In this document: piece after piece, positions 5,801 to 44,305 of the stretch | Numbering within the stretch: the stretch's first letter is position 1 | Layout: each line of letters opens with the position of its first letter | NCBI GenBank assembly: GCA_001599295.1 | Contig: BCGN01000004.1 | Span: 1,427,676 to 1,491,675 of the forward strand | Origin: Sporopachydermia quercuum | Taxonomy: Eukaryota | Length of the DNA: 64,000 nt | Reading direction: 5' to 3' | Made by a program: the position numbers and the translations under genes | Notes under the pieces: generated by a model | What the model saw: the letters and a program-made list of their open reading frames with translations, nothing else | What the model was told of the DNA's origin: nothing | Databases searched by the model: none

Positions 5801-8288
5801 CAAATTGAATCTCCTTACCATACTGAGCTGTCTGAGGAACAGAAGCATGATGGAATGTTACTCGATTGACGTTCATTAGCTTTTGACCATTAGCACTGTA
5901 AACAGGCTGTTGTAGCGTGAAATTGGTACCACCATTAGCATTATTAACATTGATAACATTGCTGCCAACGGGATGGTTTGCGTTGATATTTATTGGAGTA
6001 TCTGATTGCATTGCATTTTGATACTCATTAGTTTTACCTAGCATTTCAGCCAAATATAATGATTGATTCGTTGCAGGACCCATTGGTTGAAAAGATTTTC
6101 TTTTCTTCTTCTGAGACTTATTCATATATTCATCATCTGAGTTCTGATCGGATTTGTTATCTTGATAATCTTCATCATTGCTACCAGCGGCTGACTCATC
6201 ATTTTCATTATCCGACCCTGAATCTTCAGGACAATCATTATTATCGTCATCTCCATCGTTAATTTCCGCCATTAGTTGCTTATTATACTTATCATAATTC
6301 TTCATTGAAAATATGACATCTTCTCTGTATTCCACCTGGGATTTCTTCTTCCTTCTTAATCTCCGCGTTCTACCAGTAATTCCATCATTGAATTGATCGT
6401 TTCCATTGTTATTACTATCAGAATCGACATCTCCATCATCGAAATCTTCGATACCATAATATTCTCTTCTGGCTAAATAAAGGTAATAAAAGCAGTCTCT
6501 TTCTAACAGCTTTTCTTTCTCCTTTAATTCTTCCAACGCCTTCTCAGACAATTCAACCTCAGCATTCGGTAGTCTTCCACAGTATCCTAGTGTTAATAAC
6601 TTTTCTTTCATACTCATACCAACAAGATAATCTAGAAGATTCAATGATGCCAATAATTTGAAATGAGAATTATTAACCTCATCAGGTGAAACATCATATC
6701 GTTGCCTATACATTGAAATATACTGATCTCTATCTCTAACAATATTAGCTTCAACAACTTTTGTATACAGCAGTTTTTGATATAAAGTCAACTGACCATA
6801 AATGATGAATTCTTTCTTTGGAGGAATAACGTTTTTCAGAACGTCACATTTTAATCTTCTTAGTAAGAAAGGCTTTAGGATTTGATGAAGACTAAGAATT
6901 AAATTCTGTTGTGCTTCTTTTGTCAATAATTCGTTACTCTCGGATGATGAACTACCGATCGATTCAACATCAAAATCAAACCATTGTAAGAACATATCCA
7001 AATCACCAAATACATCAGGCAGAATAAAATTAAGTAATGACCAAAGTTCATTAAGATTGTTCTGTAAAGGAGTACCAGTTAATAATAAACGGTTCGGAAT
7101 AAATCCGAAGTTTCTTTTCAAAACAGCCAATAGTTTACTATTAGTGTTTTTCAGTCTATGACCTTCATCAACGATTAGATATTTGAATGGGAATTTCTGT
7201 AGAGCCATTCTATCAGCCATTAACATTTCATATGAGCAAATGACAACCGCTCCGTTATATTTACTATACTTTTTGACAATAGCTTTCTCTCTTCTTGATA
7301 AATGTCGTTTCCTTCGAAACCGCAATAATTCAGTCTGTCTAATATGTTCCCGTTCCTTTGGCGATCCATAGTAAACAATAGCTTGAACAGTGGGAGCAAA
7401 TTTGTTGAATTCATTTTTCCAGTTCTGGACAGTTGATAAAGGGCAAGAAACAAAAAAAGGTCCCGGGTTGCCATTTTCAATCAAAAAGCATAAAAATGCA
7501 ATTGATTGGATGGTTTTACCTAAACCCATTTCATCAGCTAATATACCGTTCAAACCATTTTCATATAATGTGATTAACCATGATAGACCTTGCAATTGAT
7601 AATCTCTCATCGAACAGTTCTCCATTAATTCTGGTTGTCGAACTCTTATTCTTGATGAAGAAGTTGAAGATGAGGAAGATGATTGTTTTTTGATTTTTGA
7701 AGCTGATTTTCTCGCTGCTCTTCTTCTTTTTCGTCTTCTATTTCGTTGGACAATCCCTTCGTCATCATCTTCATTGCCATTGTTTTCCTCTGCATCTTCC
7801 TCGTTCTCTTCACTATTACTCTTTTGCTGATCATCATTTTCATCTTCTTTGTCATCAATGACCACGAGACACTTACTGAGAATATCAGAATATATTTTTG
7901 ATTTATCAATTAATAGTTTCAGTTTTTTCAGCTTTTTATCCGCTTTCAATTCAGCTATGGATTTAAGATTTTCAAGATGTGATTCACGATACTTTTCATT
8001 CTCATCAAGAATCGACTTATTCAGATCTTTATCTTCATCCTCTAACTGAGAGATTCCCTTCTTCTCAGCAATTGCTTTTTCATGTGCTTTTTCTTGATTA
8101 TTAATATTTGACAACAAATTTTGACGCGCTTCTTCTTTCTTTCTTTCGTTTTCGTCATTATCAACTGTTGTTAAGAACTCATCATCAGCGTCACGATTAG
8201 CACTTGTATCATACTCTTCAATGAAAACTGGTCCTAAGGGACCAAATTTACTATGGGGATCAGAAAAATCAAGTTTAACTGTTGACAT
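2811..8288 (-). CDS. IRC5: Snf2-family ATPase, Irc5/LSH(HELLS)/DDM1 subfamily, with a very large low-complexity insertion between the ATPase lobes
   Basis: Motifs LYENGLNGILADEMGLGKT, LIVDEGHRLKN, LLLTGTPLQNNL, KVLIFSQF, STRAGGLGINL and QAMDRAHRLGQ are present. The gene is divergent from RSC8, as IRC5/RSC8 are in S. cerevisiae. The first ATG is at 8288; the ORF track starts at a TTG. Confidence 0.88.
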   Translation of the reverse strand: MSTVKLDFSDPHSKFGPLGPVFIEEYDTSANRDADDEFLTTVDNDENERKKEEARQNLLSNINNQEKAHEKAIAEKKGISQLEDEDKDLNKSILDENEKYRESHLENLKSIAELKADKKLKKLKLLIDKSKIYSDILSKCLVVIDDKEDENDDQQKSNSEENEEDAEENNGNEDDDEGIVQRNRRRKRRRAARKSASKIKKQSSSSSSTSSSRIRVRQPELMENCSMRDYQLQGLSWLITLYENGLNGILADEMGLGKTIQSIAFLCFLIENGNPGPFFVSCPLSTVQNWKNEFNKFAPTVQAIVYYGSPKEREHIRQTELLRFRRKRHLSRREKAIVKKYSKYNGAVVICSYEMLMADRMALQKFPFKYLIVDEGHRLKNTNSKLLAVLKRNFGFIPNRLLLTGTPLQNNLNELWSLLNFILPDVFGDLDMFLQWFDFDVESIGSSSSESNELLTKEAQQNLILSLHQILKPFLLRRLKCDVLKNVIPPKKEFIIYGQLTLYQKLLYTKVVEANIVRDRDQYISMYRQRYDVSPDEVNNSHFKLLASLNLLDYLVGMSMKEKLLTLGYCGRLPNAEVELSEKALEELKEKEKLLERDCFYYLYLARREYYGIEDFDDGDVDSDSNNNGNDQFNDGITGRTRRLRRKKKSQVEYREDVIFSMKNYDKYNKQLMAEINDGDDDNNDCPEDSGSDNENDESAAGSNDEDYQDNKSDQNSDDEYMNKSQKKKRKSFQPMGPATNQSLYLAEMLGKTNEYQNAMQSDTPININANHPVGSNVINVNNANGGTNFTLQQPVYSANGQKLMNVNRVTFHHASVPQTAQYGKEIQFEINKVNNNSRSNKNNKNDKVNINYSNNINNSLKSNVITTNNFNNANATRNIINSSVIKNNGSSNIINTNFINNNVHTIGNSNSSASSGTISSNVINNSTNYTNNPNNVIKQNGQLPKRYIVNNTPVVDIIKESNFSKSTTPTNASATTIQNPTFAIDLPYLKRANNTGGIIKTVISHPISYSNYGNSTSSIPSSNNSYSVSPSPVASINVTAASIAIPEPEPEGETLYSQYFKTLPKVKKKRSNRRRVLADMADDADDKDIEFEETAKRSSSGESKMSVLPVADPTIEPNDYRNNIGSKNGVDTHDGYNPYTNGSSIFPPDRFPVLTHAYAMKDGLRLTDAAFQRAKNSVYRSPGSIRNAIYMPSDNSSLPTLNSQGIVKDEYKRNKKSTPEVIDLTIDDDGYEREKEKRKEESKQKNKESEVVHGSNGATLANDNTDSTAITTVPTVDNGDAQNNEKTFDSSNSLNPQRQNGNQQVNDESSHNSGPINFNSAGIKVEAEVEAVSKKPIPKIQFSSINHNSLSSFQGQEKKKEKDTIEVVDSDSKGISKNDDVVVTDKAGDKSADTLPENIANEYTANDGKPVDNTPLASSGAKASENDAVANNASISTNSNPSKDGAIAETTTEKAAGNTAENTTKATAETNADSLTVDPTKSTPEQPLPKHSSASKSLKRHKPKRYKYSFDLNTIKKAFSIADREGREKKLGNLVMQMRLVCNSPYLFFDPWGNFGDLQLCQDILPKNAHGKQIKPNEVEDVFSYVKIDNRIVNSCGKMKLVDQFVPMLIKTNHKVLIFSQFSRALDMLEDWATLYRNYNVCRIDGSTSQESRQDQIDKFSRKRSSINDEDDDNEENGDDKNRISYDIFLISTRAGGLGINLVAADTVIIYDSDWNPQQDLQAMDRAHRLGQEKLVQVYRLCMSNTVEQIMLHRAGNKLKLEQLIIQVGRFGGRKESIKKNAEEEKKEVIKELDVLLHKEAPLGAGEHARLLDENELDKLLYRE

Positions 8289-8397
8289 TTTCAATGTCGG
8301 TTATTCTTTGATGAGCAGCATTAATATAGTTGATTAATGTCGTTGGAACAGATTGTGCTTGTTTATTGGTATTTTCTTTGGTCCTGATATTGATGCG

Positions 8398-28158: not shown

Positions 28159-31100
28159 CTAATATACACCAGTACTCCTTCTGCTTAATGTCCTTTGAAC
28201 TTGTAAAGGTATAGGTTTTCTCTTTGGGCCCATCTCCAAAATGTAGCTGCCACCTGTAGAAAGAGATCTCCACAGCTTTTGTAGCTGGGATCTATTATGA
28301 GGCTCTCTTTCTTCTGCCAGTTCTTGTTGCAGGCTTTCTAACGTCAAAACATGATGTAATGCTTGAACTTCATCTCGTTTATCAAGCTGTTCAGATGGTA
28401 ACATAATAGCTCTGTCCAAGTTATATGGTAATCCACGATGTCTTCCTCTGATCATCATGGCAATCATCACCAGCTTCCCTAAGGTACTATATTGACCTAC
28501 AAATGACGTGTTATAGTTGGGATATCCTAAGCTTAGTCCAACAGTTCCGTATGCTGAAACAACATCAAAAAACACTCTGAATATATCAAATTCAGGCTCT
28601 TCAGGATCTGACAGGCGGCCTCCTTCTATTAAACAAATAAGAAACAGTCCAAGGGCAATATACCATAAATCAAACGACAGTTGTCTTCTCAAATGATTCT
28701 GTATAAAAGACTTACCCCTTGCTGCTTCAGTATTAATTGTTTCGTGCTCATGAAATGCTCCAATACTCTGTTCTTCGTAAACATTAGTTGTACGAATAGA
28801 AATGGCCAGGGGAAGAACCGAGATATACATCATGATGAAATACGATACCTGCGTAGCAGGTGCCAATGACGCCAAATTAGTCATAGCGAATCCTGCTGTA
28901 CGTGTATTGAACGCTTGAAATAAACCATCAATCACTCTGAATCCCATTTTCACGCCTTGAACTTCAAATATCTTGTTTTTCAAATCAAGAATCAGAAATA
29001 AGATCCAATCCACACCATTGAGAACAACCAAGATGAAAAACAGCCACCAAGTAATGTTTGATTGAAACAACATAGTGAAACATCTTCTGGGATGATCTAG
29101 CAAGAATCCTGCGCTTTCTCGTAACTGACTGAGATCACGCGAACATTTGAACAATACCCATACAATTAGTCTTAAGGCACAGGGAAATCCTGTGTTGCCA
29201 AGAACGATTAAAAATGACATATAAATCAGTATAAATGGTGAACCGGCAAATGAGACCATTGAGTTGGGTGTCAAAGTGTACCCCAGATCGTTGAAACTTG
29301 ACTGAGCTGTGAAAAAGGCCCACCAAGCAGGAGATACACCAAAGCCTCTTACTATAGAACTATACCGTGGCATTCCTAGAATCCAACCAAGGAAAACAAA
29401 TGCTGACACTAAATGGATTCCTACATAATAAATAGCTAGTATTTTAGCCAATAGCTTAGTAGCTCTGTATTCAACACCTCCTAGTTCATCTTTCTGCTGT
29501 GGTGAGAGTCCTAAGAAAGTAGAATTACGGCCAATCGTGGGACTCCATGATAGATAATTACCAGACACTTTACTTTGTCTTCTGTTGAAAACCCTGTCGT
29601 CTTCTTCATCCGAATCGTTACGGGACCTCAAACTGAAAGTTGACATTCTTCTTGGAATGTATTGGCGAGGATGAGCATTAGCTAGCTTATTGGTAAGGTT
29701 CCGTTTCAATCTCTTGGGAAGATTTCTTTTAGTTTTACGAGAATTTCCTGAAGGAGAGTTTCCCATTGCTGTTCCTGTAGTTTTAGAGGCGCTAATTGCT
29801 GCCCCAGATGGTACATCAATAGTATTGCTTCGTTTGCCCAGTTTCTTGTGGGAACGATCAGCATTTGTTGATAGAGGACCAATATTTGATCGAGCCCTTT
29901 TCAAGTCAAATTTTTCGTAAGAATCATCGTCATCAATATTCTCGGCATTACTGTTGCTATCATATGTATCCTCTGACTCGAACCCTGTTGATGCATCATT
30001 AAAACTTGTGTCTGCTGAATGAGCAGTTGCTTTCAACCCAAACTTGCGGGATTTGAAAAATGAGGCCGCCCGTTGTCTCCGATTTGGCCAAACAGAAGCA
30101 GAATTGTCGTCGTGTTCTCTGTGATGAAAGTCTGAATGTCTTGTCTTTTGCTTGAACTCGTGATGTTCCCCCCTGTCTAGTTCTCTAGGTCCTTTTACTA
30201 CCAACGCAGGTCCTTCTCCAAGTTCGAATTCTGAAGGTCTACGGCTCTTTTGCAGCATAGAAATTGACCTCAGTACGTCAGAAGGTTCTATCTGGTCTGT
30301 TCGGTAGGGGTCTGACTCTTCATCTTCATCATTGTTATTGTTCATACTGTTATTACTACCGTCGTTATTACTATTCATACTCTCATTGCTATTCTTAGCT
30401 GTTGATCCTGGGTCGCTGTTATCACCAGCAAGCATTCTTCTCTTGTCTTCTTGCTCTTTCTCATGTTTTTGTTGTAGAAACTGAATAGATCTTAAAACTT
30501 GTGGAGGATCATTTCTATCATTGTTGAGACTATTGCTATTGTCATCTGAGCCTCGATGATTATCTGATAAAGTATCCAGTTCAAAACCGTTTTGATTCTG
30601 CATTTGGTCACTTTTCGGCCGAGGAAGGTGCGAGAACTTGATGTCCTTTTTCGCTAGAGCAGGGTTATTCAAATTGCTATCCTTGCTTTCNCCAGAATTC
30701 ATTTTCCCACTGAAATGCTCAATGTCGTTAGTAGATATACGTCCTCTTGATGCTAGTGTTGCTGTTCTTCTCATTTTATGCTGTAGTTTAGACCGTTCTC
30801 TGATGTTCTCAAATCTGGTTTCAAACCAGTAGAGCCTAATAAACACAATTGAAGAATGAATAAACACGGGAGTTGTCAAAAAACATATTATGTATAATAC
30901 CATTTGCTGCCAAAGGGTAATCTCGTTGACGTCTACCGTGTTTAAACCACCCTGAGTGGCAGAGCCACAACCAAAAAACAAAGCATCGATATATGCGATA
31001 TTGCCAACAGGATAAATCATTATAGACCCAGCAATGGCCCATGCGATAATATAGAAATAGTGAGCAAGCAAGAAGGACGGAATTGTGAATTTCCATCCTT

Positions 31101-31260
31101 TGGTGATAGCTCTTCTTAGAGGACCGGGGATAGATCGAAAGATAGCCTTAAACCCTTTCACTACTCTCCGTATGAAAGCATAACTGAAAAGAAATCTAAC
31201 GAACCGAGAAGCATTATCAAATTTTTCCTGTGTTCTAAACTCCCAATCTATTAGCGCCAT
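28159..31260 (-). CDS. TRK1: Trk-family high-affinity potassium transporter
   Basis: Four MPM selectivity motifs (ATQGGLN, FNDLGYT, TRTAGF, AYGTVGLS), LSWSPTIGRNS, ELGGVEYRA and RGRHRGLP. Adjacent to URA2, as in S. cerevisiae. Confidence 0.93.
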   Translation of the reverse strand: MALIDWEFRTQEKFDNASRFVRFLFSYAFIRRVVKGFKAIFRSIPGPLRRAITKGWKFTIPSFLLAHYFYIIAWAIAGSIMIYPVGNIAYIDALFFGCGSATQGGLNTVDVNEITLWQQMVLYIICFLTTPVFIHSSIVFIRLYWFETRFENIRERSKLQHKMRRTATLASRGRISTNDIEHFSGKMNSXESKDSNLNNPALAKKDIKFSHLPRPKSDQMQNQNGFELDTLSDNHRGSDDNSNSLNNDRNDPPQVLRSIQFLQQKHEKEQEDKRRMLAGDNSDPGSTAKNSNESMNSNNDGSNNSMNNNNDEDEESDPYRTDQIEPSDVLRSISMLQKSRRPSEFELGEGPALVVKGPRELDRGEHHEFKQKTRHSDFHHREHDDNSASVWPNRRQRAASFFKSRKFGLKATAHSADTSFNDASTGFESEDTYDSNSNAENIDDDDSYEKFDLKRARSNIGPLSTNADRSHKKLGKRSNTIDVPSGAAISASKTTGTAMGNSPSGNSRKTKRNLPKRLKRNLTNKLANAHPRQYIPRRMSTFSLRSRNDSDEEDDRVFNRRQSKVSGNYLSWSPTIGRNSTFLGLSPQQKDELGGVEYRATKLLAKILAIYYVGIHLVSAFVFLGWILGMPRYSSIVRGFGVSPAWWAFFTAQSSFNDLGYTLTPNSMVSFAGSPFILIYMSFLIVLGNTGFPCALRLIVWVLFKCSRDLSQLRESAGFLLDHPRRCFTMLFQSNITWWLFFILVVLNGVDWILFLILDLKNKIFEVQGVKMGFRVIDGLFQAFNTRTAGFAMTNLASLAPATQVSYFIMMYISVLPLAISIRTTNVYEEQSIGAFHEHETINTEAARGKSFIQNHLRRQLSFDLWYIALGLFLICLIEGGRLSDPEEPEFDIFRVFFDVVSAYGTVGLSLGYPNYNTSFVGQYSTLGKLVMIAMMIRGRHRGLPYNLDRAIMLPSEQLDKRDEVQALHHVLTLESLQQELAEEREPHNRSQLQKLWRSLSTGGSYILEMGPKRKPIPLQVQRTLSRRSTGVY

Positions 31261-32959
31261 TCCCTTAAATAAATGTTTAGAAATATATTTCTGCTGGCAG
31301 CAGATACCGAAATATATCGGTTTTGCTGTGTGGTTGAAGTGCTATGCTATATCGAACCTGCGATAAGAATGACGAAGCAGAGTCTGCAAAATAAGTTTGT
31401 TGAACAAGCAGTAAAAGTCATAAAAACTAAAAAGAAGCTTTCTTGATATAATCTCCGGATATATGTATGATGTAAAAGCTCAATATCAATCAATTGTATG
31501 AATTAATGAATAGAGAAGGCAGTTCTGTGTGAGTAATTGAACGAATAGATTAGTAACCCATTGACCAATCAAGTTTCCTGTGGCCATCAATGACTTTCAC
31601 ACAGTCCTAACACTTGAATCTTATTATTTTATCAAAGCAATAGTATTGAACAATAGGTTGATAGAAACTANCTCCCAACTATATGTTTATAAATTCTTTG
31701 AGCTGGCCGTCCTTCTATAGAGTGGTGAACTGTTTATAGGGCATCAAGCATTCTTTTGCTTGAGGCAAAATAAGGTTAGAACACATGCATAGCTTTGCAG
31801 TTTCATGCAGTCTCCACGTGATTTCAGATATACAGAACAAGAAAGGAAAGAGAAAGGGAGACCAGACAGCTCATGAATATGTTCGCTATAGGAATGGCTA
31901 ATAAATGTTTACTTAGTCTGCTTTATTAAACAAAATAATAAATTGTTTCACTAGGTGGAGAAGTAAATATTATATTTATATATAGACTGTATGATTTTAT
32001 GAAGAATATAATCAAATAGATTTTATGATTCCAATATATTAAATTTTCAAGGTTCTCAGCAGCATATACAAATGAAAATATTGAGATTTTTTGTGTTGAA
32101 TACAAATTAGGTGTCAGACCCTTTATTTCCTAACTTACAAGACTGCCATTCAGAATAAAATTGATTAAAATTGGAAGTGATTCTTGAAAATATGACATCT
32201 ATTATCTATTGAAATTGAGCGATACACAATTCCATCTCACGAGAGGGTCAAATACTATGTGTAATAGGATAAATTACTCATGGATAAAGTACTAAAGGAT
32301 CATGTCAAAAACGAGCAAGAGGATCTCGGTAAATGAACTCAAATGAATCAAAACCTTAAAAGTTTACTTACTGTAGTGAGTTTCAGGTAGGGCTTCCAAT
32401 CAACTAATAAGCTTTAATAATTCGAAAGCCGTGAAACTTTAAGTTTTTCACTCTCAGATATGCCAGTGAAGGGAACTGCTTCAAGATTAAAACCACCAAT
32501 ACCATCCATAATTGAANAAATCAAANTAGGCAATAATTATGAATTTCCGAACACTAGAAAACAAAACCAGGAAATTTGGATGTTTGTATTAGTTTACTCT
32601 AGGTCAATGTGTCCTTAAGTGGTATGATAACCAACTGATAGCTACTCCGAAAAGCCATTTTGTTCCATTCTAACACCGTCTCAAATCCTTTCAAAATATG
32701 CCCAAAATATTCCCATATTAATACGATTTCGAAATCGTCCCCCTGACAAAAATTTCGCTTACATCCAAACCAGCAGGATAGACATCTTCCAGATCTCCTA
32801 AGAAACTCGCTCATCGCTTTCTACTCCCAGACCCCATAAGTACTATCCAGGCCCTTTCTTAAGTCTATTCCATTGAAAATTTTCTCAAGTCTATTTCTTC
32901 GTTTACTACTGAATTCACACCAGAATGAAAAGATTTTAGAGAGCTACAACCATATTTAT

Positions 32960-33172
32960 TCTCATCTGTTTTCTCATTTTTTTTTGCTGCCCTGTTTCTT
33001 CCTACTCTTTAGTTTCTCTCCTTCTTTATTTCTCCTTCTCCTCTCTTTCTTTCCCTTTTCCCTCTTTCTCTCTTCTTCCCTCTTCTTTTTTTCCCTTCTT
33101 TTTCCTTTCCTTTCTCTTTTTATTCTCCTTCCCTCTTCCTCCTTCCTTCTTCCAGCCAATCTCCTTCTTTTC
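32960..33172 (+). repeat. About 200-nt polypyrimidine/polypurine tract
   Basis: 33029-33121 contains no purine on the + strand, and the flanks are nearly pure C/T. Confidence 0.95.
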
Positions 33173-33528
33173 TGGTGATATCAACTGACACCTTTACTTG
33201 CCAAACCTCGTGGAACTTACCTTCCACCTCCTATCGCGCGCATTACCCCCAAGGATTTTTCCAGTTTTCAAACCTTAAAATTTTTTTAATTTGTACCATC
33301 ACATCACGATAGTTGAAATAATAGTTCCGTGCAACTATTATTATTGCTAGTACAAACTATCATCACTGCTACTATCTGTTAGTTGTAGTTGTTGATAAGT
33401 ATAAGCATAAGTTGTGATTGCCAGGCAGAAGATTGTTGATTTGTTGTGAAAAACAAGATATCAACAAACTACTAAAAGTGTTTGTTTTGGTATAAAGTAC
33501 TAAGTGTTTGGTTTGGTGCGGGAAACAG

Positions 33529-34474
33529 GTAAGTGAAAGTGAAAATCTTGGGACGTCATAAAAGGTCGAATAGATGGTAAAAGAGATTGGGAGAACAACT
33601 TAGAAGAGGAATGAGTGAAAAGGAAAGAGAAAGATGGAGGGAGTATGATAGAAAGGAAGAAATTGGATTGGAATGAAGGTTAGGTTGGGTGATTTTAAAT
33701 TCGAGCAGAATTGTCGTAGAAATGATGTTCTTGTAGCGGGAGAGTCGTTCATACTGGTTGATGAAATAGCAAAGCATTGCCAGAAATGGTAGAAAGACAA
33801 TGAGGAATGAGCAATCAATGAAAAGCGTTTGACGAGTGTTTGATTGGTTGGTGATTGAATGCTCAATGCTCAATGAATGTAATTTACTGTAATCTGGTGA
33901 GAAAATAGACAATTGAGCGAGCTGTTTGATGGAAATTAGAGCTAAAATGTTTGTTGTTTGATCTGTTGAGTTTTGGATTGGGCTTCTCTAAGCATGAAAG
34001 AAAAAAAAAAAAATAGAATCTTGTCGAAAAAGAACAATTAATTGTTGCTAATGGTGAGAATTCATCGCCGGCACTTCACAATTCATAAACTCAATGAATC
34101 AATCAGACCAGCTTTTCTTTCGAAGTCTCATTTGACCAGCCGTCAGATTTCATAAATTACGCTCAGTCGACCTATATTGCATTTCTTTTGCTATTAATAT
34201 TGCTACCGCAAGAACAAAACTACTACAAGAACTCTTCTGCGTAACTACTTTCTGCTCCTTTTTATCTCAAATTCCTCAATCTAATCATTCTAATCCCATC
34301 CTTTTAATTCATGTTCCTTTTTCTGCTACTCTCTTGTATCTTACACTAGACTTTTCCATCTTGTTCTGTAGACTGAATAAAATAATCTCTTTTACTATCA
34401 GCACCTATCTACCTGTACCCTTTACTCCAATATTTGTATTCTACTCTTGTCTTCAATACTAACAAAACATCCAG
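33529..34474 (+). other. Predicted 946-nt spliceosomal intron in the URA2 5' UTR
   Basis: CAG|GTAAGT donor at 33529, perfect TACTAAC at 34457-34463, and first downstream CAG at 34472-34474. S. cerevisiae URA2 is known to have a 5'-UTR intron. Confidence 0.78.
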
Positions 34475-34670
34475 CATATATTTGCACTACTGCTTCTCCA
34501 AGCTTTAACTAGGAAAGAAAGAAATATCTAATNTTTTTGCCTTAAAACTATCGTCCCCCAGAGTTTTGCTGCAAGTTTATTGAATTTTCTCTTAATTATC
34601 TCTTACATCTTATTATTATTCTTTTTCTTAACAATTTATCTTTACTTTCATCTACAAAATCATATCAACA

Positions 34671-37600
34671 ATGTCCAACGTTTCACAACCAATTACCCCT
34701 CCTTTAAAGGGGGCTTCTCAAAAAATGGCCCTTGAACTCCAAGACGGTAAGATCGTCACTGGTTATTCTTTTGGCGCGCCAAGATCCATTGCGGGTGAAC
34801 TCGTTTTTCAGACTGGTATGGTAGGTTATGTTGAATCTATCACAGATCCTTCTTACCGTGGACAAATCTTGGTTGTGACTTTCCCTTTGGTCGGTAACTA
34901 TGGTGTTCCTGATCGCGAGGAAATTGATGCCGTTCTCAATTTGTCAAAATACATTGAATCATCCAAGATTCATATTGCTGGTTTGGTTGTCGCTCATTAC
35001 ACTGAAAAATTTTCTCACTATTTGGCCAAGTCCTCTTTAGGAGAGTGGCTTAAAGCTGAAAATATTCCTGCTATTTATGGCGTGGACACCAGAGAACTCA
35101 CCAAAACTATTCGAAACGAAGGTAGTATGCTTGGACGTTTATGCATTGAAAAGCTTGGTTCTGACGACTCTGTTACCAAATGGCAAGACCTTTACGANGT
35201 TCCTGACTGGGTGGACCCCAATATACTTAATTTAGTAGCTCAAGTGTCTACCGAGGTGCCTGCTCTTTACAAGCCAGACCCCTCTGTTGCTATTGAAGGT
35301 CCTGATGGTANAACTATTCGTATCTTGGCTATCGACGTTGGTATGAAATACAACCAAATTCGTTGTTTTGTTAAGCGTGGTGTTGAATTACTTGTTGTTC
35401 CTTGGGACTACGATTTCACCACTGAAAAATACGATGGTCTCTTTGTATCCAATGGACCTGGTGACCCTGCCACTCTTTCTTCTTTGTCAGCTAAACTCTC
35501 AGGCGTTGTCAAGGCTGCTGAGACACCAATTTTTGGTATTTGTCTTGGTCACCAATTGCTTGCCAGAGCTGCAGGTGCCACCACTTCGAAACTCAAGTTT
35601 GGTAACCGTGGACATAACATTCCCTGCACCAATTTAATCTCCGGACGATGCTACATTACCTCCCAGAACCACGGTTATGCTGTTGATGCTGATTCTCTCC
35701 CTGAAGGATACCAAGAACTTTTCATTAACGCCAATGACGGTTCTAACGAAGGTATTTTCAACACTGAGAAACCTATTTTCTCTGTTCAATTCCATCCCGA
35801 ATCTACACCAGGCCCTCGTGATACCGAATTTCTCTTTGACGTGTTTATCAAAGCTGTTGTAGACTTCAAGGCTGACATTAATACTGGTCCTGTTGCCTTC
35901 CCCGGTGGAATCAAAGCTGAGAGTGACGCAGCTCATCCTCGTGCCGAAGTCCAAAAAGTTCTGGTTCTTGGTTCAGGTGGCCTTTCTATTGGTCAAGCTG
36001 GTGAATTTGATTACTCTGGTTCTCAAGCTATCAAAGCTTTGAAAGAAGAAGGTATTTACACTGTTTTGATCAACCCAAATATTGCCACTATCCAAACCTC
36101 AAAGGGTCTTGCTGACAAGGTATATTTTTTACCTGTCAACGCAGATTTCGTCCGCAAGGTAATCAAGTTCGAACGTCCTGACGCTATCTATGTTACATTT
36201 GGCGGTCAAACTGCATTGAACGTTGGTATCAAACTCAAGGATGAATTCGCTGGCCTCGGTGTTAAAGTACTAGGTACACCTATCGAAACCGTTATTACTA
36301 CAGAAGACAGAGACTTATTTGCTCGTTCTATGGAAGAAATTGGTGAGAAATGTGCCAAATCCGCGGTTGCTGCTACCGTGAAAGAGGCTTTAGAAGTAGT
36401 TAAGGATATCCAATTCCCAGTTATTGTCAGAGCTGCTTATGCTCTCGGTGGTTTGGGATCAGGTTTTGCTGAAAACGAAACTGAATTAGTTGCTTTATGT
36501 GAAAAAGCTTTTGCAACTTCACCACAAGTCTTGATTGAAAAGTCCATGAAAGGTTGGAAGGAAATCGAATACGAAGTTGTTCGTGATGCCTTTGATAACT
36601 GTATCACTGTCTGTAACATGGAAAACTTTGATCCCTTAGGAATCCATACTGGTGACTCTATTGTCGTGGCTCCTTCTCAAACACTTTCTGATGAAGATTA
36701 TAATATGCTACGTACTACAGCCGTTAATGTCATTCGTCATTTAGGTGTTGTTGGTGAATGCAACATTCAATACGCCTTGAACCCCTTTTCCAAAGAATAC
36801 TGCATTATTGAAGTCAATGCTCGTTTATCCCGGTCTTCCGCTTTAGCTTCTAAGGCTACTGGGTATCCGTTAGCTTTCATTGCTGCCAAACTTGGTCTCA
36901 ATATTCGATTAGACCAAATCAAGAACTCAGTAACTAAAAGCACTTGTGCCTGCTTCGAACCTTCTCTTGATTATGTGGTTGTTAAAATCCCTCGTTGGGA
37001 TCTTAAGAAATTCACCAGAGTGTCAAAGGAGTTGTCCTCATCTATGAAGTCCGTTGGTGAAGTTATGTCTATCGGTAGAACATTTGAAGAAGCTATTCAG
37101 AAAGCTATCAGATCTACAGATTATCATAATCTTGGTTTCACACCTACAGAAGCTTTGATGTCCATTGATATCGATGCAGAACTTCAAACACCTTCAGATC
37201 AACGTTTGTTCGCCATTGCCAATGCTTTTGCTTCTGGCTATTCAGTGGATAAAGTGTGGAATCTTACCAAGATTGATAAGTGGTTCCTTAACAAGTTGGC
37301 ATATTTGATTCAATTTGCTGAGGGTTTAAACAAATTCACTTTGGGAAATGTCCCATTGGAATTAGTAAAGGAGGCCAAACAGCTTGGTTTTGATGATAGA
37401 CAGATTGCCAAGGCTGTTAGATCCACTGAACTAGCTGTTAGAAAAGTCAGATGTGAAGCTGGAATTACACCTTTTGTCAAACAAATCGATACTGTTGCAG
37501 CTGAATTCCCTGCTCATACCAACTATCTCTATATGACCTATAACGCGTCAGGTCATGATATCACTTTTGATGATCATGGTGTAATGGTCCTTTCTTCTGG

Positions 37601-40600
37601 TGTTTATCGTATCGGTTCCTCAGTTGAATTCGATTGGTGTGCTGTAAGAGCCATTAGAACCCTCCGTGAACATGGAACAAAAACCATTATGGTTAACTAC
37701 AACCCGGAAACCGTTTCTACAGATTATGATGAAGCTGATAGATTGTACTTTGAAGTTATCAATCTTGAACGTGTATTAGATATCTATGAGTTGGAAACAT
37801 CGTCAGGTGTGATTATTGCTATGGGTGGTCAAACATCCAACAATATTGCTTTACCATTGCATAGACAAAACGTTAANATCCTTGGTACTTCACCGGAAAT
37901 GATTGATTCAGCAGAAAACAGATACAAGTTCTCTCGAATGCTTGATCGTATTGGTGTTGATCAACCAGCCTGGAAAGAGTTGACTTCTATTGAGGAAGCT
38001 GAAGAATTCGCTGATAAAGTATCATATCCTGTACTTGTCAGACCTTCTTATGTTTTATCTGGTGCTGCTATGAACACTGTTTACTCTAGAGACGATTTGG
38101 CCAACTATTTGGCTCAAGCAGTAGAAGTCTCACAAGATTATCCCGTTGTTATCACCAAGTATATTGAACAGGCAAAGGAAATTGAAATGGACGCTGTTGC
38201 GCAAGATGGTAAATTAGTAATGCATGTTGTTTCAGAACACGTTGAAAATGCCGGTGTTCATTCTGGTGACGCAACGTTAGTTGTTCCTCCTCAAGATTTG
38301 GACCCTGAAACCGTGAGACGAATTGTTCAAGCCACAGCCAAGATTGGTGCCGCTTTGAACGTTACAGGTCCTTACAATATTCAATTTATTGCCAAGAACA
38401 ACGAAATTAAAGTCATCGAATGTAATGTCCGAGCTTCTCGTTCATTTCCATTTGTTTCAAAAGTCATTGGAACTGATCTCATTTCTATGGCTACAGAAGC
38501 TATAATGGGTTACCCATTCCAACCATATCCTTCCAGAGCTCCTGAGGATTACTGTGCTATCAAAGTACCTCAATTTTCATTCTCCAGACTTTCTGGTGCA
38601 GATCCTGTTTTAGGTGTCGAGATGGCTTCCACAGGTGAAGTTGCTACCTTTGGTAGAAACAAATATGAGGCTTATGTTAAGTCTCTCATTGCCACTGGTT
38701 TTGTGTTGCCCAAGAAGAACATTCTTTTGTCTATTGGTTCATTCAAAGAAAAGCAGGAGCTTTTGCCTTCTGTTAAAAAACTCCATGAACTTGGATTCAA
38801 ACTATTTGCCACTGCAGGTACCGCAGATTTCATTCAAGAACACGGTATTCCTGTGCAATACTTGGAAGTTCTCAATGAAGAAGACGAGCAAAAATCCGAG
38901 TATTCTTTGACACAACATTTGGCCAATAACCTGATTGATTTATACATCAATTTGCCATCTTCCAACCGATTCAGAAGACCTGCCAATTATATGAGTAAAG
39001 GTTATCAAACTAGACGTATGGCTGTTGATTATGCGGTACCATTGGTAACTAACGTTAAATGTGCTAAATTATTAATTGAAGCCATCGCCAGAGGTATCAC
39101 TTTAGACACCCTTAACGTTTCAGAATTGGATTCTCAAACTTCTCATCGTACTGTTGTTTTGCCAGGATTAGTGAACATCTCAGCTTTTGTTCCTACATTA
39201 ACTGAATCCAATTCCACTGATTTTGAACAAGTCACCAAAATATCCATACAGTCAGGCTTCACGATGACAAGAGTTCTTCCAATTTNTTTCAACGGGGCTG
39301 TCACCGATAATGAATCTTTATTTGCTGCCAGAAAGAATACCGGTAGGGCTGCCTGTGACTATAACTTGGCAATCTGCGCCACTGATTCTAACGCAGCATC
39401 TTTGGCTCAAGCTGTTTCTACTGTTGGATCATTGTTCATCCCTTTCAATCATTTCGGTAATAATATCAATAAGGTAGCAGCTTTAACAGCTCATTTCAAC
39501 ACCTGGCCAAGCAGCAAGCCTATTGTTTCAGACGCGAAGACCACCGACTTGGCATCTATCCTTTTACTGGCTTCCTTACATTCTAGACATATTCATATCA
39601 CCAATGTCACCAACAAGGATGATTTACACTTAATTGCTCTTGCCAAAGAGAAAAGACTTGGTGTTACTTGTGATGTTTCTGTTTACGCTTTATTCTTTGC
39701 CAGAGAAGACTTTCCTGGTGCAAAATCACTCCCTACTATGGAAGACCAGGCAGCCTTATGGGAACTGTTACCGATAATCGACTGTTTCTCTGTTGGAGTG
39801 TTACCATCTCAAATTGCCCAAGAATTGGGAGAGAAGGTTGAAGCCGGCTTGGGAATAGCAGAAACCTTACCATTGTTATTCCAAGCTGTATCTGAAGGAA
39901 AATTGGAAGTTTCAGATATCATTGCTAGATTACATACAAATCCTATTAAGATCTTTGATTTAGAATTACCTGAAGCTTCGGTTGAAATCGATTTAGATTG
40001 GAAAGCTGGATTCCTGGCTGACAGTTTGATTAGACGTTTAGTTGGTAAGGATTTACATGGATCTGTCCAAAGAGTGAACTTCCACGGCGAAACTGTGTGC
40101 TTAGAAGGAGAAATTGTTGCTTCCACTACTATTGGAAAGGACATCAACGTTGTTGGAACTCTTGCTAGATCAGCAAGCATTTCAGTTGGAACTGACGATT
40201 CATACGCATCCACAATTACACCAGTTACACCTATTCAAAGAGAAAGCAGAGTTTCGTTCTCTCTAGACCGTAGAAGCTCTATTGTTCAAGCATCACCTGT
40301 TATTGGAAAAGAATCAGCTGTATTTGAAGACGACGGAAGAGACGGATTCCGTACTAGAGATCCAAAGATTGATCGCGAGCTTTCACCACCTTCCTCGCTG
40401 GTACAATATATTCGCAAGAACAACACTTTCTTAAGAAAGCACGTTTTATCGGTAAAGGATATCTCAAGAAGAGATTTACATGTTCTTTTCTCCGTGGCAC
40501 AAGAAATGAGACTTTTGGTTGAACGACAAGGTGTTCTAGACCTCATGAAAGGGAGATTACTCACTACAATGTTTTTCGAACCATCTACTAGAACATCATC

Positions 40601-41351
40601 TTCATTTGATGCTGCCATGCAAAGATTAGGTGGTAGAGTTGTTGCTATTAATGCTCAAGCGTCCAGTGTCACCAAAGGTGAAACACTACAAGATACATTA
40701 AGAACGCTTTCAAGTTATGGTGATGCTATTGTTCTTCGTCATCCAGACGAGGAATCTGCTGATATTGCAGGTAAATACTCACCAGTTCCTGTTATTAATG
40801 GTGGTAATGGATCAAAGGAACATCCAACTCAAGCATTATTGGATTTATTCACCATCAGAGAAGAATTAGGCACTGTCAATGGCATCACTGTTACATTCAT
40901 GGGAGATTTGAAATACGGCAGACCAGTTCATTCATTATGCAAGCTATTACAGCATTATCAAGTTAAAATCCAACTTGTTTCCCCAGAACAATTGAGACTT
41001 CCTTCATACATCAGGGACGAACTCGTGGAAAAGGGTATGTTGATCTGCGAGTCACAAGAATTAACTAAGGATATCGTAGCAAGATCAGATGTTTTATATT
41101 GCACAAGAGTTCAAAAAGAGAGATTTGACGATCTACAAGAGTTCGAAAAACTCAAGGACACATATATTGTCGATTTATCTGTTATGAACCATGCTAAGCA
41201 ACATATGTGTGTTATGCATCCATTGCCTAGAAATAATGAAATCAGACCTGAGGTGGATTTCGACCAACGGGCAGCATATTTCAGACAGATGAGATATGGG
41301 TTATTTGTTCGTATGGCACTACTAGCATTGGTTATTGGTATTGACTTTTAA
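34671..41351 (+). CDS. URA2: Multifunctional CPSase/ATCase (GATase, CPSase, inactive DHOase-like domain, ATCase)
   Basis: GICLGHQ and QFHPE (GATase); [17 protein letters not shown] (CPSase); a DHOase-like segment lacking the HxH ligands ([10 protein letters not shown]); [12 protein letters not shown] and MHPLPR (ATCase). Confidence 0.98.
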
Positions 41352-42592: not shown

Positions 42593-44305
42593 CTAGCTAA
42601 ACATATGGTCATTCTCATTAGCTTGTATCAGAGCTCTTGCTATTTCAATCTCATCGTCACTAGCAACATCACGATCCATTTTCTCAGGAACTCCAACTTG
42701 CACACCAGAACCATCTACATCTAAATCTTTATCACGGTCCAAATGATCATCGAATCCTGCTACTTGAGGATCTACAGGTATTTCCGACTCTCTCTGGTCA
42801 TGATCAACATTATCATCTTTCTTTTTATCGTCATAATGATCATCAAATTCAAACTCCCTATGCATTTCCATTTGTTCATGAGTCCTTTGAGCAGCTTCTA
42901 CCGCTGCTAATAATGAATTCGGATCATCTGGATCAATACCACTTAGATCAAGATTATCTTGTAACTGCTGAGCAGCAGCAGCAGCAGCTACAGCAGCAGC
43001 AGTATCGTGGTCGTTATGTTGTACTTCATCATTATGATGCGTTGCATGCTCGCCAGATATTCCATGATGCTGATGCTGATGCTGATCATGATGTTGCTGA
43101 TGCTGATGTTGGTGTTGATGTCGATTCTCATGCTCATGTTCTGGTTGAAGTTGGTCATGATTATTATTGCTTTGACTATCAGCATGAACAATATGCGGCT
43201 CCACTAACTGTGTATCGTGTGTATGAGTAGATGAAAGTTGCTGATTCAAGTTATTAGAGCTCGGACTGGCTTGAATATGTACAGGTTGCGAAATAGACTT
43301 CAGTTGTTGGTGACTCTTATTAGGATCTCTGCATGTAGGGCAATTACGAATTGCAGCAGCAGCAGTGTCTTTAATTCTTGTCCAGTGATATCTTTCAGTA
43401 ATAGCCGATGTTGTTTTATTGATACCTCCATGAGATACCATATGCATCTCTGTAGCAATTTCTAACTGTCTTGCAGGATCAGAGATAACTTCTCTACCTT
43501 TCAAATACAATTTACCATTTTCCAACGTATAATGAGCAGCCGAGGATCTCAAACGAGATTTTTCTTGCCTATCAGACATTGGAGGATATCTCCCTGTTTC
43601 TAGGTAGAATTTAATTTTATCAAATCGAAATGAACCAACAGATGTGTCGACTGTTGGTACCAATTCACGACCATAAATAATAGCATCAACAGGTAGATCA
43701 TGACCTTTTAGAATACCTGCCGATTTAATTCTACCAACTCGCTTGAAACTCAAAGACTCCCAAATTCTTCTACTGGCAACATTAGTTTCAAACACAAGAT
43801 TGAACACTGAATACGTATAACCGAGTCTAGGAGCCCATTCCAAATAGCACTCAGCTAAAGTTCTGCCAATACCTTTACCTCTAATACCAGCATTAACAAG
43901 AAAGCCAGCATTACAAATATGAGAGCAACGACCTGGGTAGTTTGGTTTAACATAGAAACTTCCTAAACATTCTTTTTCCCATTGTCTACCTGGTTGAATA
44001 CTTGGATCGTCGCCTATTAACATAACAGCGGCAAACGCACCAAACCAATAGTTTTGGAAAGTATCAATATGTAAAGTATCGAAAAAAGGATAAGTGTCAC
44101 CGCGTTCAATTTCCATGTTGAATTCATCACACAAGAAAGCCAATAGACCTACTGGCAACTGTTCTGGTGATGAAATAGGATATATAGTAGCAGTAGTTTC
44201 ACCATCTTTCAACAAGACAGTGTATGGTTCTATCACTGCTACAGGATAATCTAATGGTGGCCTATAATGTGGAGGTTGCGTTGGATCATCAAAAGCAGAC
44301 GGCAT
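42593..44305 (-). CDS. SPT10: Histone-gene activator Spt10 (GNAT domain plus H2C2 zinc DNA-binding domain)
   Basis: FYVKPNYPGRCSHICNAGF, GIGRTL and FNLVFETN; H2C2 motif HMVSHGGINKTT...YHW...CPTC. Divergent from NIT2, as in S. cerevisiae. Confidence 0.92.
   Translation of the reverse strand: MPSAFDDPTQPPHYRPPLDYPVAVIEPYTVLLKDGETTATIYPISSPEQLPVGLLAFLCDEFNMEIERGDTYPFFDTLHIDTFQNYWFGAFAAVMLIGDDPSIQPGRQWEKECLGSFYVKPNYPGRCSHICNAGFLVNAGIRGKGIGRTLAECYLEWAPRLGYTYSVFNLVFETNVASRRIWESLSFKRVGRIKSAGILKGHDLPVDAIIYGRELVPTVDTSVGSFRFDKIKFYLETGRYPPMSDRQEKSRLRSSAAHYTLENGKLYLKGREVISDPARQLEIATEMHMVSHGGINKTTSAITERYHWTRIKDTAAAAIRNCPTCRDPNKSHQQLKSISQPVHIQASPSSNNLNQQLSSTHTHDTQLVEPHIVHADSQSNNNHDQLQPEHEHENRHQHQHQHQQHHDQHQHQHHGISGEHATHHNDEVQHNDHDTAAAVAAAAAAQQLQDNLDLSGIDPDDPNSLLAAVEAAQRTHEQMEMHREFEFDDHYDDKKKDDNVDHDQRESEIPVDPQVAGFDDHLDRDKDLDVDGSGVQVGVPEKMDRDVASDDEIEIARALIQANENDHMFS

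Follow-up and report, generated by a model that had tools for sequence, protein, structure and literature searches.

A predicted rod-like hairpin along the probable 5'-UTR intron of URA2 in Sporopachydermia quercuum

What is the 946-nt stretch upstream of URA2 in the yeast Sporopachydermia quercuum, and what, if anything, does the nested complementarity of its two halves do? The stretch (33529-34474, + strand) lies in a 64-kb window of contig BCGN01000004.1, which is the whole stretch of DNA that was analysed and to which all positions refer. A sequence-only reading had proposed a URA2 5'-UTR intron that folds into a long rod. We compared the locus with other URA2 loci and with shuffled sequences. 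Statements on published systems that carry an accession draw on the accessible portions of those papers.

A probable leader intron in URA2

The URA2 coding sequence (34671-41351, + strand) is an open reading frame of 2226 aa, and Pfam identified GATase, CPSase small and large chain, MGS and aspartate carbamoyltransferase domains in its product. Residues 1-400 are 66-71% identical to yeast Ura2 proteins, and the closest match in a protein search came from Trichomonascus (71% identity). The gene upstream is TRK1-like and divergent from URA2, with a 3.4-kb spacer between them. In S. cerevisiae, TRK1 presumably stands in tandem with URA2. Two antisense open reading frames in the spacer (33556-33912 and 32873-33178) gave no Pfam family and were taken for low-complexity artefacts.

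The segment 33529-34474 is very probably the 5'-UTR intron of URA2, judging from its splice signals, the distribution of ATG and its S. cerevisiae counterpart. It opens with the 5' splice site GTAAGT (33529-33534), carries the branch point box TACTAAC at 34457-34463 (branch A at 34462) and closes with the 3' splice site CAG (34472-34474), 12 nt past the branch A. TACTAAC occurs 8 times on both strands of the window, the box of this intron being one of them. GTAAGT also opens two other introns of the window, both on the - strand. One (60465-60381) splits a Band_7 domain and the other (55092-54979) directly follows the ATG of a WW plus rotamase gene. The distance from branch point to 3' splice site is 15 and 18 nt in these two introns.

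The distribution of ATG follows the proposed exon and intron borders. The putative exon 1 (33171-33528, + strand), the intron and the leader part of exon 2 (34475-34670, up to the URA2 start codon) contain 0, 22 and 0 ATGs, compared with 6.4, 19.2 and 1.9 expected from their own composition. In exon 1 the same three letters in other orders occur 5-11 times each. Exon 1 lies within the longest ATG-free gap on the + strand of the window (32925-33574), which ends 45 nt inside the intron. An exon 1 free of ATG makes sense only as part of a mature mRNA. Upstream ATGs are confined to the intron, whose removal would make the leader translatable. Contigs from three S. quercuum DNA runs matched the window except for one 1-nt deletion at 33548, seen in two of the three runs; the match in a fourth run was limited to a 35-nt A-rich piece.

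A 5'-UTR intron in S. cerevisiae URA2 was reportedly described by Juneau et al. in 2007. The accessible portion of PMC2525842 places this verified intron at -385 to -66. The two introns are alike in gene, in location within the leader and in having a consensus 5' splice site together with UACUAAC, and both genes have a TrkH-family (TRK1-like) upstream neighbour and a cluster of TCTT motifs upstream of the leader. They differ in length (about 320 nt there, 946 nt here), in the 5' splice site (GUAUGU there, GTAAGT here) and in the distance from 3' splice site to ATG (about 65 nt there, 196 nt here).

We also scanned metagenomes and obtained 80 URA2 loci, with 65-69% protein identity at best. Neither these loci nor the protein search yielded an intron that could be aligned with the one in S. 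quercuum. Signals were counted in the 14 yeast-like loci, where the evidence for an orthologous intron consists of sequence signals only, not transcripts. TACTAAC stands just upstream of the URA2 start codon in 7 of the 14. Within 400 nt upstream of URA2, sense TACTAAC occurs 7 times in 5,383 nt (1.30 per kb), compared with 5 times in 209,597 nt (0.024 per kb) elsewhere in the same loci. GTATGT or GTAAGT is found 137-623 nt further upstream in six of the seven; the locus L001 ends at a contig edge. Two near-identical loci, L004 and L015, show GTAAGT followed by GACTAAC. Leader intron signals were found in loci matching Candida parapsilosis, Sungouiella intermedia, and relatives of Scheffersomyces and Torulaspora. 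Together with the verified S. cerevisiae intron, these signals give the leader intron of URA2 the appearance of an old feature shared by many budding yeasts.

The segment might instead be untranscribed promoter or intergenic DNA, or lie upstream of the real start, with splice-like signals arising by chance. A TATAAAG at 33492, 37 nt upstream of the 5' splice site, might put the start of transcription inside the proposed intron, and the spacer to the TRK1-like gene has room for a promoter. We consider this very unlikely. The ATG-free leader upstream of 33529 fits only a mature mRNA, the consensus signals do not differ from those at the two domain-supported introns of the window, S. cerevisiae URA2 has a verified leader intron (PMC2525842, in part), and the signals recur in half of the yeast-like loci. 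The identification of the segment as a URA2 5'-UTR intron was borne out by its consensus signals, its ATG pattern, and the verified intron or intron signals at the corresponding position in other yeasts.

Predicted nested pairing along the intron

Seven helices had been proposed to join the two halves of the intron in nested order. All seven lie where they had been placed: 33573-33588 with 34384-34399, 33665-33676 with 34285-34296, 33680-33689 with 34275-34284, 33703-33710 with 34250-34257, 33727-33736 with 34223-34232, 33765-33773 with 34187-34195, and 33966-33973 with 34087-34094. Together they comprise 69 Watson-Crick and 4 G.U pairs and no other mismatch. The described contrast between a G/A-rich 5' half and a C/T-rich 3' half is also real. 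In 100-nt bins the share of purines declines from 0.76 in 33529-33628 to 0.27 in 34229-34328, and the GC skew along the intron goes from +0.77 to -0.56.

The predicted minimum free energy (MFE) of the intron is -245.6 kcal/mol, and its fold is a single interrupted rod. Shuffling each half separately, as the sequence-only reading had suggested, gave -205.4 +/- 8.2 kcal/mol (z -4.9), and none of 60 shuffles reached the native value; the finding thereby withstood the refutation which that reading had laid down. Shuffling within 100-nt bins gave -212.8 +/- 8.8 kcal/mol (z -3.7), again with 0 of 60 at the native MFE. A repeat of the stability test with 40 shuffles gave z -4.37. The native fold has 204 pairs that span at least 300 nt, compared with a mean of 124 (maximum 172) in half-wise shuffles and 146 (maximum 184) in 100-nt-bin shuffles.

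The excess lies in the order of the matches. Watson-Crick-only inverted matches of at least 8 bp number 12, which is at the level of chance (shuffle means 11.4 and 11.7; 12 or more in 233 and 263 of 500 shuffles). What stands out is their collinear nesting: the longest nested chain reaches 64 bp, compared with shuffle means of 32 and 35, and was equalled by 0 and 1 of 500 shuffles. A scan of the 64 kb in 631 overlapping windows of 946 nt (mean 26.4, sd 9.1) likewise gave its highest value here, the next separate region reaching 56.

The rod is built from two arms and an apical domain. The 5' arm (33538-33858, + strand) is purine-rich (purine fraction 0.76-0.65) and the 3' arm (34099-34426, + strand) is pyrimidine-rich (0.44-0.27), with 45% T in 34229-34328. 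Folded alone, the 5' arm has an energy of -49.2 kcal/mol compared with -67.1 +/- 7.6 for composition-matched draws, and the 3' arm has -30.7 compared with -77.0 +/- 7.1; none of 100 draws was as unstable in either case. Self-folding of each arm is poor since purine does not pair with purine, nor pyrimidine with pyrimidine. Together the two arms cofold at -194.8 kcal/mol.

At the base of the rod is a 17-bp outer stem, formed by 33573-33589 and 34383-34399 with a pair probability of 0.99 whether or not 50-nt exon flanks are included. Its 5' strand starts 38 nt past the 5' splice site hexamer, and its 3' strand ends 57 nt upstream of the branch point box. Pair probabilities for the helices joining 33573-33736 to 34223-34399 are 0.80-0.99, with the exception of one 4-bp helix at 0.32. 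The apical domain (33859-34098) consists of local hairpins, a run of 13 A (34000-34012) and the helices between 33965-33979 and 34080-34095. Of these, 33965-33973/34087-34095 and 33974-33979/34080-34085 have probabilities of 0.97-0.98. A snoRNA was looked for within the intron by eye only and set aside, as the single TGATGA at 33759 has no CTGA close by.

Splicing aid, regulator or relic

Long S. cerevisiae introns such as those of RPS17B, RPS6B, APE2 and RPL7A/B carry zipper stems (PMC2536676, PMC12350175 and PMC12311795, each in part). The outer stem of the rod, with 17 bp and a probability of 0.99, agrees with the stem length of the definition in the accessible portion of PMC12350175, and its linkers of 38 nt and 57 nt each agree with the limits for individual linkers. 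Their total of 95 nt falls outside the 42-85 nt window of the same definition. A 4-bp helix further out (33563-33566/34403-34406, p 0.76) would shorten the total linker to 78 nt. It falls outside the definition as well, since it has fewer than 6 bp and 9 bulge nucleotides lie between it and the main stem where 5 are allowed (PMC12350175, in part). The predicted rod therefore fits the looser zipper description of 2008 (PMC2536676, in part) rather than strict membership under PMC12350175, and it may work in a zipper-like way. Compared with the S. cerevisiae zipper stems, pairing here runs on past one stem, along some 320 nt of each arm, to give a nested rod; purines are gathered in one arm and pyrimidines in the other, and the rod is a predicted structure.

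The outer helix had been thought to bring the donor close to the branch point. Bridging of the splice sites is the function that fits the rod best. The graph distance from 5' splice site to branch point is 18 in the native MFE structure (ensemble median 13), and its medians are 11 in half-wise and 7 in whole-intron shuffles (35 of each). Since shuffled folds also bring the two signals close, proximity by itself is no evidence.

With 50-nt exon flanks, the model pairs 33527-33531 with 34410-34414 (p 0.82-0.91), leaving the 5' splice site with a mean unpaired probability of 0.24, and pairs the branch point box with 33487-33493 in exon 1 (p about 0.3-0.5). Such pairing of the 5' splice site would hinder U1 binding, not help it. 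Hairpins that sequester splice signals in yeast pre-mRNAs are known from the literature of the 1990s. The likeness here is that the first intron and last exon bases are predicted to pair at the foot of the rod; the difference is that this pairing is 5 bp long, predicted, and set within a structure that otherwise resembles a splicing enhancer.

These predicted pairings would suit a regulatory structure, in which the foot of the rod hides the 5' splice site, exon 1 engages the branch point box, and splicing thereby becomes adjustable, possibly through the speed of elongation across the U-rich 3' arm when UTP is low. S. cerevisiae URA2 is under the control of UTP level through leader and promoter events (PMC2525842, in part), and the T content of the 3' arm would fit such control. 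We regard this as quite unlikely. The pairings are thermodynamic predictions, and 5-bp helices should be weak rivals to U1 and the branch-point binding protein. In S. cerevisiae, UTP control acts at start-site choice and termination rather than at the intron, and deletion of the intron left reporter expression unchanged, with no detectable effect (PMC2525842, in part).

The other yeasts also argue against a conserved element. The candidate orthologous introns are 173-637 nt long, and only one of the seven is more stable than its shuffles. No whole-intron hairpin is described for the S. cerevisiae URA2 intron in the accessible portion of PMC2525842. A literature search, within the accessible portions of the papers found, gave no report of a URA2 intron that folds over its whole length into a hairpin; the supplementary tables of PMC12350175 may list structural features of the S. 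cerevisiae one. The rod is specific to the S. quercuum lineage, and a role as a conserved regulator of URA2 is not supported.

The deviations within the helices had been described as G-U compatible only on the + strand, which was taken as a sign of selection at the RNA level, as opposed to a DNA inverted repeat. The first statement holds for the seven chosen helices and becomes marginal across the whole rod; the second finds slight support, the strand asymmetry being about 2 sd. A DNA-level alignment of the arms contains 16 G.T/T.G and 8 A.C/C.A mismatches. Where the 5' arm has a purine, A.C mismatches number 3 and G.T mismatches 11. In tests with 40 shuffles, the stability z was -4.37 for the + strand, -2.33 for the - strand and -2.61 for the + strand without G-U pairs, so that the excess stability of the + strand is about twice that of the - strand. 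The energy difference between strands (-40.8, z -1.9) was also reached by the most extreme of the 40 shuffles (-41.0). A transcription-linked mutation bias could mimic this asymmetry.

A real intron may contain a rod that is a neutral relic of palindromic DNA, which entered a shorter ancestral intron as an inverted duplication or foldback insertion and is now decaying. We think this possible, if doubtful. Part of the complementarity is independent of the strand, as seen from the z of -2.33 on the - strand and of -2.61 with Watson-Crick pairs only, and the DNA-level alignment is identical in 278 of 352 columns (79%; z 6.2 against 200 shuffles). The rod is missing from six of the seven candidate orthologous introns, which points to a gain that is recent and confined to this lineage. 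An inserted segment of about 830 nt would take up most of the intron, and the closeness of the rod to the splice signals would then need no selection. The silent deletion of the S. cerevisiae intron (PMC2525842, in part) points the same way.

Other observations fit a relic less well. Blastn found no inverted self-match at E ≤ 1 except one 14-nt match in the apical domain (E 0.61), and no second copy of the intron in the window or in the 80 URA2 loci; the latter result also led us to reject the idea of a repeat family. The twofold excess of + strand stability and the rarity of A.C relative to G.T at purine positions of the 5' arm are further points against it. Both arms are strikingly free of self-structure, which is unexpected for a generic palindrome, although any palindrome skewed between purines and pyrimidines would show the same. 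An inverted repeat of the centromere type was set aside, the arms measuring only about 300 nt and being imperfect.

The least probable account is that the excised rod acts as an RNA itself, as a substrate of RNase III (Rnt1) or a budding-yeast Dicer or as a stable excised intron. The typical feature of an Rnt1 substrate is an AGNN tetraloop capping the stem, and AGNN is present in none of the nine hairpin loops of the MFE structure. Palindromic hairpin loci that feed budding-yeast RNAi form near-perfect long duplexes. The rod resembles such loci (bioRxiv 10.1101/2019.12.12.873604, in part) in being a long, presumably transcribed inverted repeat, and its roughly 200 long-range pairs would favour processing. 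It differs in that its longest perfect run is 12 bp (17 bp with G-U pairs), interrupted by bulges, which would make it a poor Dicer substrate. In S. cerevisiae, excised introns accumulated in saturated culture if, and only if, the branch point lay at most 25 nt from the 3' splice site (bioRxiv 10.1101/426049, in part). The 12 nt of the URA2 intron lie within this limit, as do the 15 and 18 nt of the other two introns, so the distance does not distinguish it. A search of 32000-35000 on both strands against Rfam 15 gave no match at E ≤ 1.

A zipper-like reading and its meaning

The reading we prefer, at about even odds (roughly 0.5), is a genuine spliceosomal URA2 5'-UTR intron that has become enlarged and carries a zipper-like hairpin, partitioned by composition, that aids splicing. 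An ancient leader intron, the counterpart of the S. cerevisiae one, would have grown to 946 nt in the S. quercuum lineage. Since either arm can hardly fold on itself, the purine-rich 5' arm would remain unpaired while transcription goes on, up to the emergence of the 3' arm. Both would then zip up in vivo into an interrupted rod with some 200 long-range base pairs. Zipped in this way, the rod would let the yeast spliceosome deal with a very long intron as though it were short, which is the role of zipper stems in long S. cerevisiae introns, and splicing would take place at the sites described above.

A stronger proposal is unlikely. It holds that the split between purine and pyrimidine arms is a selected design, in which the arms avoid local kinetic traps, zip once the second arm has been transcribed, and so allowed an ancient intron to triple in length in a little-sampled yeast lineage. 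In its boldest form, zipping would depend on the passage of RNA polymerase through the 3' arm, where U reaches 45%; the formation of the rod, and the hiding or exposure of the 5' splice site, would then report UTP supply for the enzyme that opens UTP synthesis.

Should the rod be no more than a palindrome in decay, the finding is an ordinary one. If it forms and aids splicing, it would be an extreme natural case of a zipper, with a whole 946-nt intron paired lengthwise instead of by one stem, and with arms built so that neither misfolds alone. It would then offer a clean test of the extent to which RNA structure can offset intron length in yeasts with compact spliceosomal requirements, and it would bear on the routes by which introns grow. 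The apparently wide retention of a URA2 leader intron, from S. cerevisiae to the deep-branching S. quercuum, raises the question of why it is kept.

The probable leader intron of URA2

The DNA of the window is that of a budding yeast. The URA2 ORF (34671-41351, + strand; 2226 aa) carries GATase, CPSase, MGS and aspartate carbamoyltransferase domains, the full Ura2 set. Residues 1-400 are 66-71% identical to Ura2 entries from many budding-yeast genera, and since the top identity is 70-71%, to Trichomonascus, the collections searched contain no close relative of this yeast. Upstream lies a TRK1-like gene for a TrkH-family cation transporter (28159-31260, - strand). The URA2 promoter region of S. 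cerevisiae is described as the TRK1-URA2 intergenic region (PMC2525842); a TRK1-like gene thus adjoins URA2 in both yeasts, and here the pair is divergent with a 3.4-kb spacer. A further ORF at 42593-44305 (- strand, 570 aa) has both a GNAT acetyltransferase domain and an integrase-type H2C2 zinc finger, an unusual combination that might be a domesticated retroelement piece.

The segment 33529-34474 (+ strand, 946 nt) begins with the 5' splice site GTAAGT at 33529, contains the branch point box TACTAAC at 34457-34463 and ends with CAG at 34472-34474. It is very probably this lineage's form of the known, ancient URA2 leader intron, with splicing predicted from sequence. We read it as an intron because four lines of evidence concur: its signals, the same signals in other introns of the window, the distribution of ATGs, and counterparts elsewhere.

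These signals bound two further introns of the window, both backed by protein domains. In a Band_7/SPFH (stomatin-like) gene (60665-59528, - strand), exon 1 (60665-60466) stops directly before the GTAAGT of an 85-nt intron (60465-60381) with TACTAAC and CAG. This intron interrupts the Band_7 domain, and the frame opening at 60379 picks up the Pfam profile at its position 20. In an Ess1/Pin1-type gene (WW and rotamase; 55095-54436, - strand), exon 1 is the ATG alone, and a 114-nt intron (55092-54979; GTAAGT, TGCTAAC, TTAG) is followed by exon 2 in frame.

The distribution of upstream ATGs matches the prediction for an intron. The putative exon 1 (33171-33528) has none where 6.4 are expected, the intron has 22 (expected 19.2), and the exon 2 part of the leader (34475-34670) has none (expected 1.9). 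Each of the other permutations of A, T and G is present 5-11 times in 33171-33528, and 32925-33574 is the longest ATG-free stretch of the + strand in the entire window. TATAAAG at 33492, 37 nt 5' of the 5' splice site, was counted against the intron reading.

In S. cerevisiae, URA2 has an untranslated intron, verified by experiment, that runs from -385 to -66 with GUAUGU, UACUAAC and UAG (PMC2525842, crediting Juneau et al. 2007). We scanned 32 of 80 metagenomic URA2 loci for such signals. A sense TACTAAC occurred within 400 nt 5' of the start codon in seven of the 32 (L001, L003, L005, L008, L009, L010 and L020). Across the 14 yeast-like loci among these, representing about 12 sequences because L004/L015 and L033/L034 are near-duplicates, TACTAAC was found 7 times in 5,383 nt upstream (1.30/kb) versus 5 times in 209,597 nt in the remainder of those loci (0.024/kb). 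GTATGT or GTAAGT lay 137-623 nt further 5' in six of the seven loci, L001 being interrupted by the contig end; L004/L015 have GTAAGT with GACTAAC in place of TACTAAC. Candidate 5'-UTR introns of 173-637 nt were thereby outlined in L003, L005, L008, L009, L010, L020 and L004/L015. By Ura2 protein identity, L008 matches a Candida parapsilosis entry (100%) and L003 a Sungouiella intermedia entry (99.5%), and the nearest entries are Torulaspora for L005 (88%) and Scheffersomyces for L010 and L004 (85-86%). Judged by signals rather than transcripts, the URA2 leader intron looks old and widely retained in budding yeasts.

A pyrimidine tract at 32997-33169 (+ strand), about 360-530 nt 5' of the 5' splice site, has 14 TCTT motifs in 200 nt, the highest density in the window. 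For S. cerevisiae URA2, five TCTT (Nab3) boxes directly 5' of the initiator are described as part of an attenuation system (PMC2525842). By analogy, the tract may permit attenuation-type control here.

Folding of the intron against shuffled controls

All seven helices named by the sequence-only reading were found at their coordinates; 69 of their pairs are Watson-Crick and 4 are G.U, and they contain no further mismatch. Going 5' to 3' through the segment, the share of purines drops from 0.76 to 0.27. RNAfold gave one interrupted rod of -245.6 kcal/mol, with pair probabilities of 0.80-0.99 for the helices between 33573-33736 and 34223-34399, except one 4-bp helix (0.32).

Because a purine-rich half pairs with a pyrimidine-rich half regardless of order, dinucleotides were shuffled within each half or within 100-nt bins. 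Half-wise shuffles, the comparison proposed by the sequence-only reading, averaged -205.4 ± 8.2 kcal/mol (z -4.9), and bin shuffles -212.8 ± 8.8 (z -3.7); 0 of 60 in either set reached the native energy. Repeated with 40 half-wise shuffles, the test returned z -4.37. The native fold contains 204 pairs that reach across 300 nt or more, versus means of 124 (half-wise) and 146 (bins) and maxima of 172 and 184. Since native energy and long-range pairing exceed these composition-keeping shuffles, composition by itself accounts for most of the rod, not all.

The matches had also been said to be strictly nested. Their nesting stood out: the 64-bp chain, against shuffle means of 32 and 35, was reached by 0/500 and 1/500 shuffles. 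Their number, however, was at chance, as the 12 inverted matches of 8 bp or longer, counting Watson-Crick pairs only, showed no excess (as many in 233/500 and 263/500 shuffles). Of 631 overlapping 946-nt intervals taken over all 64 kb, whose nested-chain scores average 26.4 (sd 9.1), this segment scored highest. The runner-up separate region, 7201-8300, scored 56 bp; it lies within an ORF (2811-8288, - strand), has a high TCTT density and is probably a low-complexity coding repeat. The helices and the predicted long nested hairpin are therefore borne out, with an energy better than half-wise shuffles.

Regarding other readings of the rod, no Rfam family matched, none of 9 hairpin loops was an AGNN tetraloop, and perfect pairing extends over 12 bp at most. 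Stable excised introns of S. cerevisiae are described by a short distance from branch point to 3' splice site (25 nt or less; 10.1101/426049). The 12 nt of the URA2 intron lie within this range, and so do the distances in the other two introns (15 and 18 nt).

Strand asymmetry, origin and conservation

G-U deviations compatible with the + strand only had been taken to indicate selection on RNA. The direction agreed, as the sense strand has a wobble bonus, but its size was about 2 sd. Folding z (n=40) was -4.37 for sense, -2.33 for antisense and -2.61 for sense without G-U. The sense minus antisense energy was -40.8; the 40 shuffles averaged -23.1 ± 9.3 (z -1.9), and one went as far as -41.0. 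At the DNA level, one arm aligned with the reverse complement of the other with 278/352 columns identical (z 6.2, 200 shuffles), and transition-type mismatches were 11 G.T and 5 T.G versus 3 A.C and 5 C.A. From these strand z scores and this alignment, the rod combines a real, strand-independent palindromic component with a modest wobble-pair bonus on the sense strand.

The main rival is a neutral decaying palindrome, and the same wobble bias could arise if C-to-T changes were in excess on the non-template strand. Blastn found no significant inverted self-match in the intron (a single 14-nt apical match, E 0.61) and, in the window and the URA2 loci retrieved, no second copy; if the rod started as a duplication, it is an old one fragmented into short helices. 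Sequence from three DNA runs of this yeast gave no polymorphism usable for a test. Across 33000-35150 it differed from the window at 33548 alone, where the contigs of two runs from one sample (X2 and X3) lack 1 nt; the fold predicted for this stretch leaves it unpaired.

From six loci we took seven candidate orthologous introns (173-637 nt) and folded each against 100 half-wise shuffles. Their z scores were -3.46 (L003), -1.62, -0.94, -0.72, -0.56, +0.29 and +0.63, and none of the 7 has the purine/pyrimidine split (purines 0.44-0.55 in 5' halves, 0.40-0.49 in 3' halves). The rod is therefore not conserved; rod and large size belong to this lineage, not to URA2 introns generally. In S. cerevisiae, deletion of the intron is reported to leave a URA2-lacZ reporter without detectable change (PMC2525842).

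A zipper-like stem and a possible folding route

The 17-bp stem 33573-33589/34383-34399 has a pair probability of 0.99, the same with exon flanks. It begins 38 nt past the 5' splice site hexamer and finishes 57 nt short of the branch point box, signals that are 923 nt apart in linear sequence. Zipper stems are described as bringing the two signals together in long S. cerevisiae introns (PMC2536676, PMC12350175), and the stem here would shorten their distance likewise. The 2025 definition asks for 6 bp or more, minimum distances of 10 nt and 20 nt from the two signals, and a total linker of 42-85 nt (PMC12350175). As the linker here is 10 nt beyond this range, we call the stem zipper-like in its predicted working, not a strict zipper stem.

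The outer helix had been proposed to bring donor and branch point close. It does so in the predicted fold (graph distance 18), but shuffles come at least as close (medians of 11 in 35 half-wise, 7 in 35 whole), so predicted closeness of this kind is a general property of long RNAs. In a model extended by 50-nt exon flanks, the exon 1/intron junction (33527-33531) pairs with 34410-34414 in the 3' arm (p 0.82-0.91). The 5' splice site then sits at the rod's foot, unpaired with a mean probability of 0.24. Such pairing could be a hindrance rather than a help. With the same flanks, 34457-34465 at the branch point box pairs with exon 1 at 33487-33493 (p ~0.3-0.5).

Each arm by itself is predicted to be unusually unstructured, which is a new element. 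The 5' arm (33538-33858) alone gave -49.2 versus -67.1 ± 7.6, and the 3' arm (34099-34426) -30.7 versus -77.0 ± 7.1, with 0/100 composition-matched draws as unstable in either case; cofolded, the arms gave -194.8 kcal/mol. The purine arm would not trap itself while waiting for its partner, and this openness suggests how a long-range rod might form co-transcriptionally. As predicted, the end-to-end, composition-partitioned hairpin is a variant, at the extreme, of the zipper structures known from introns.
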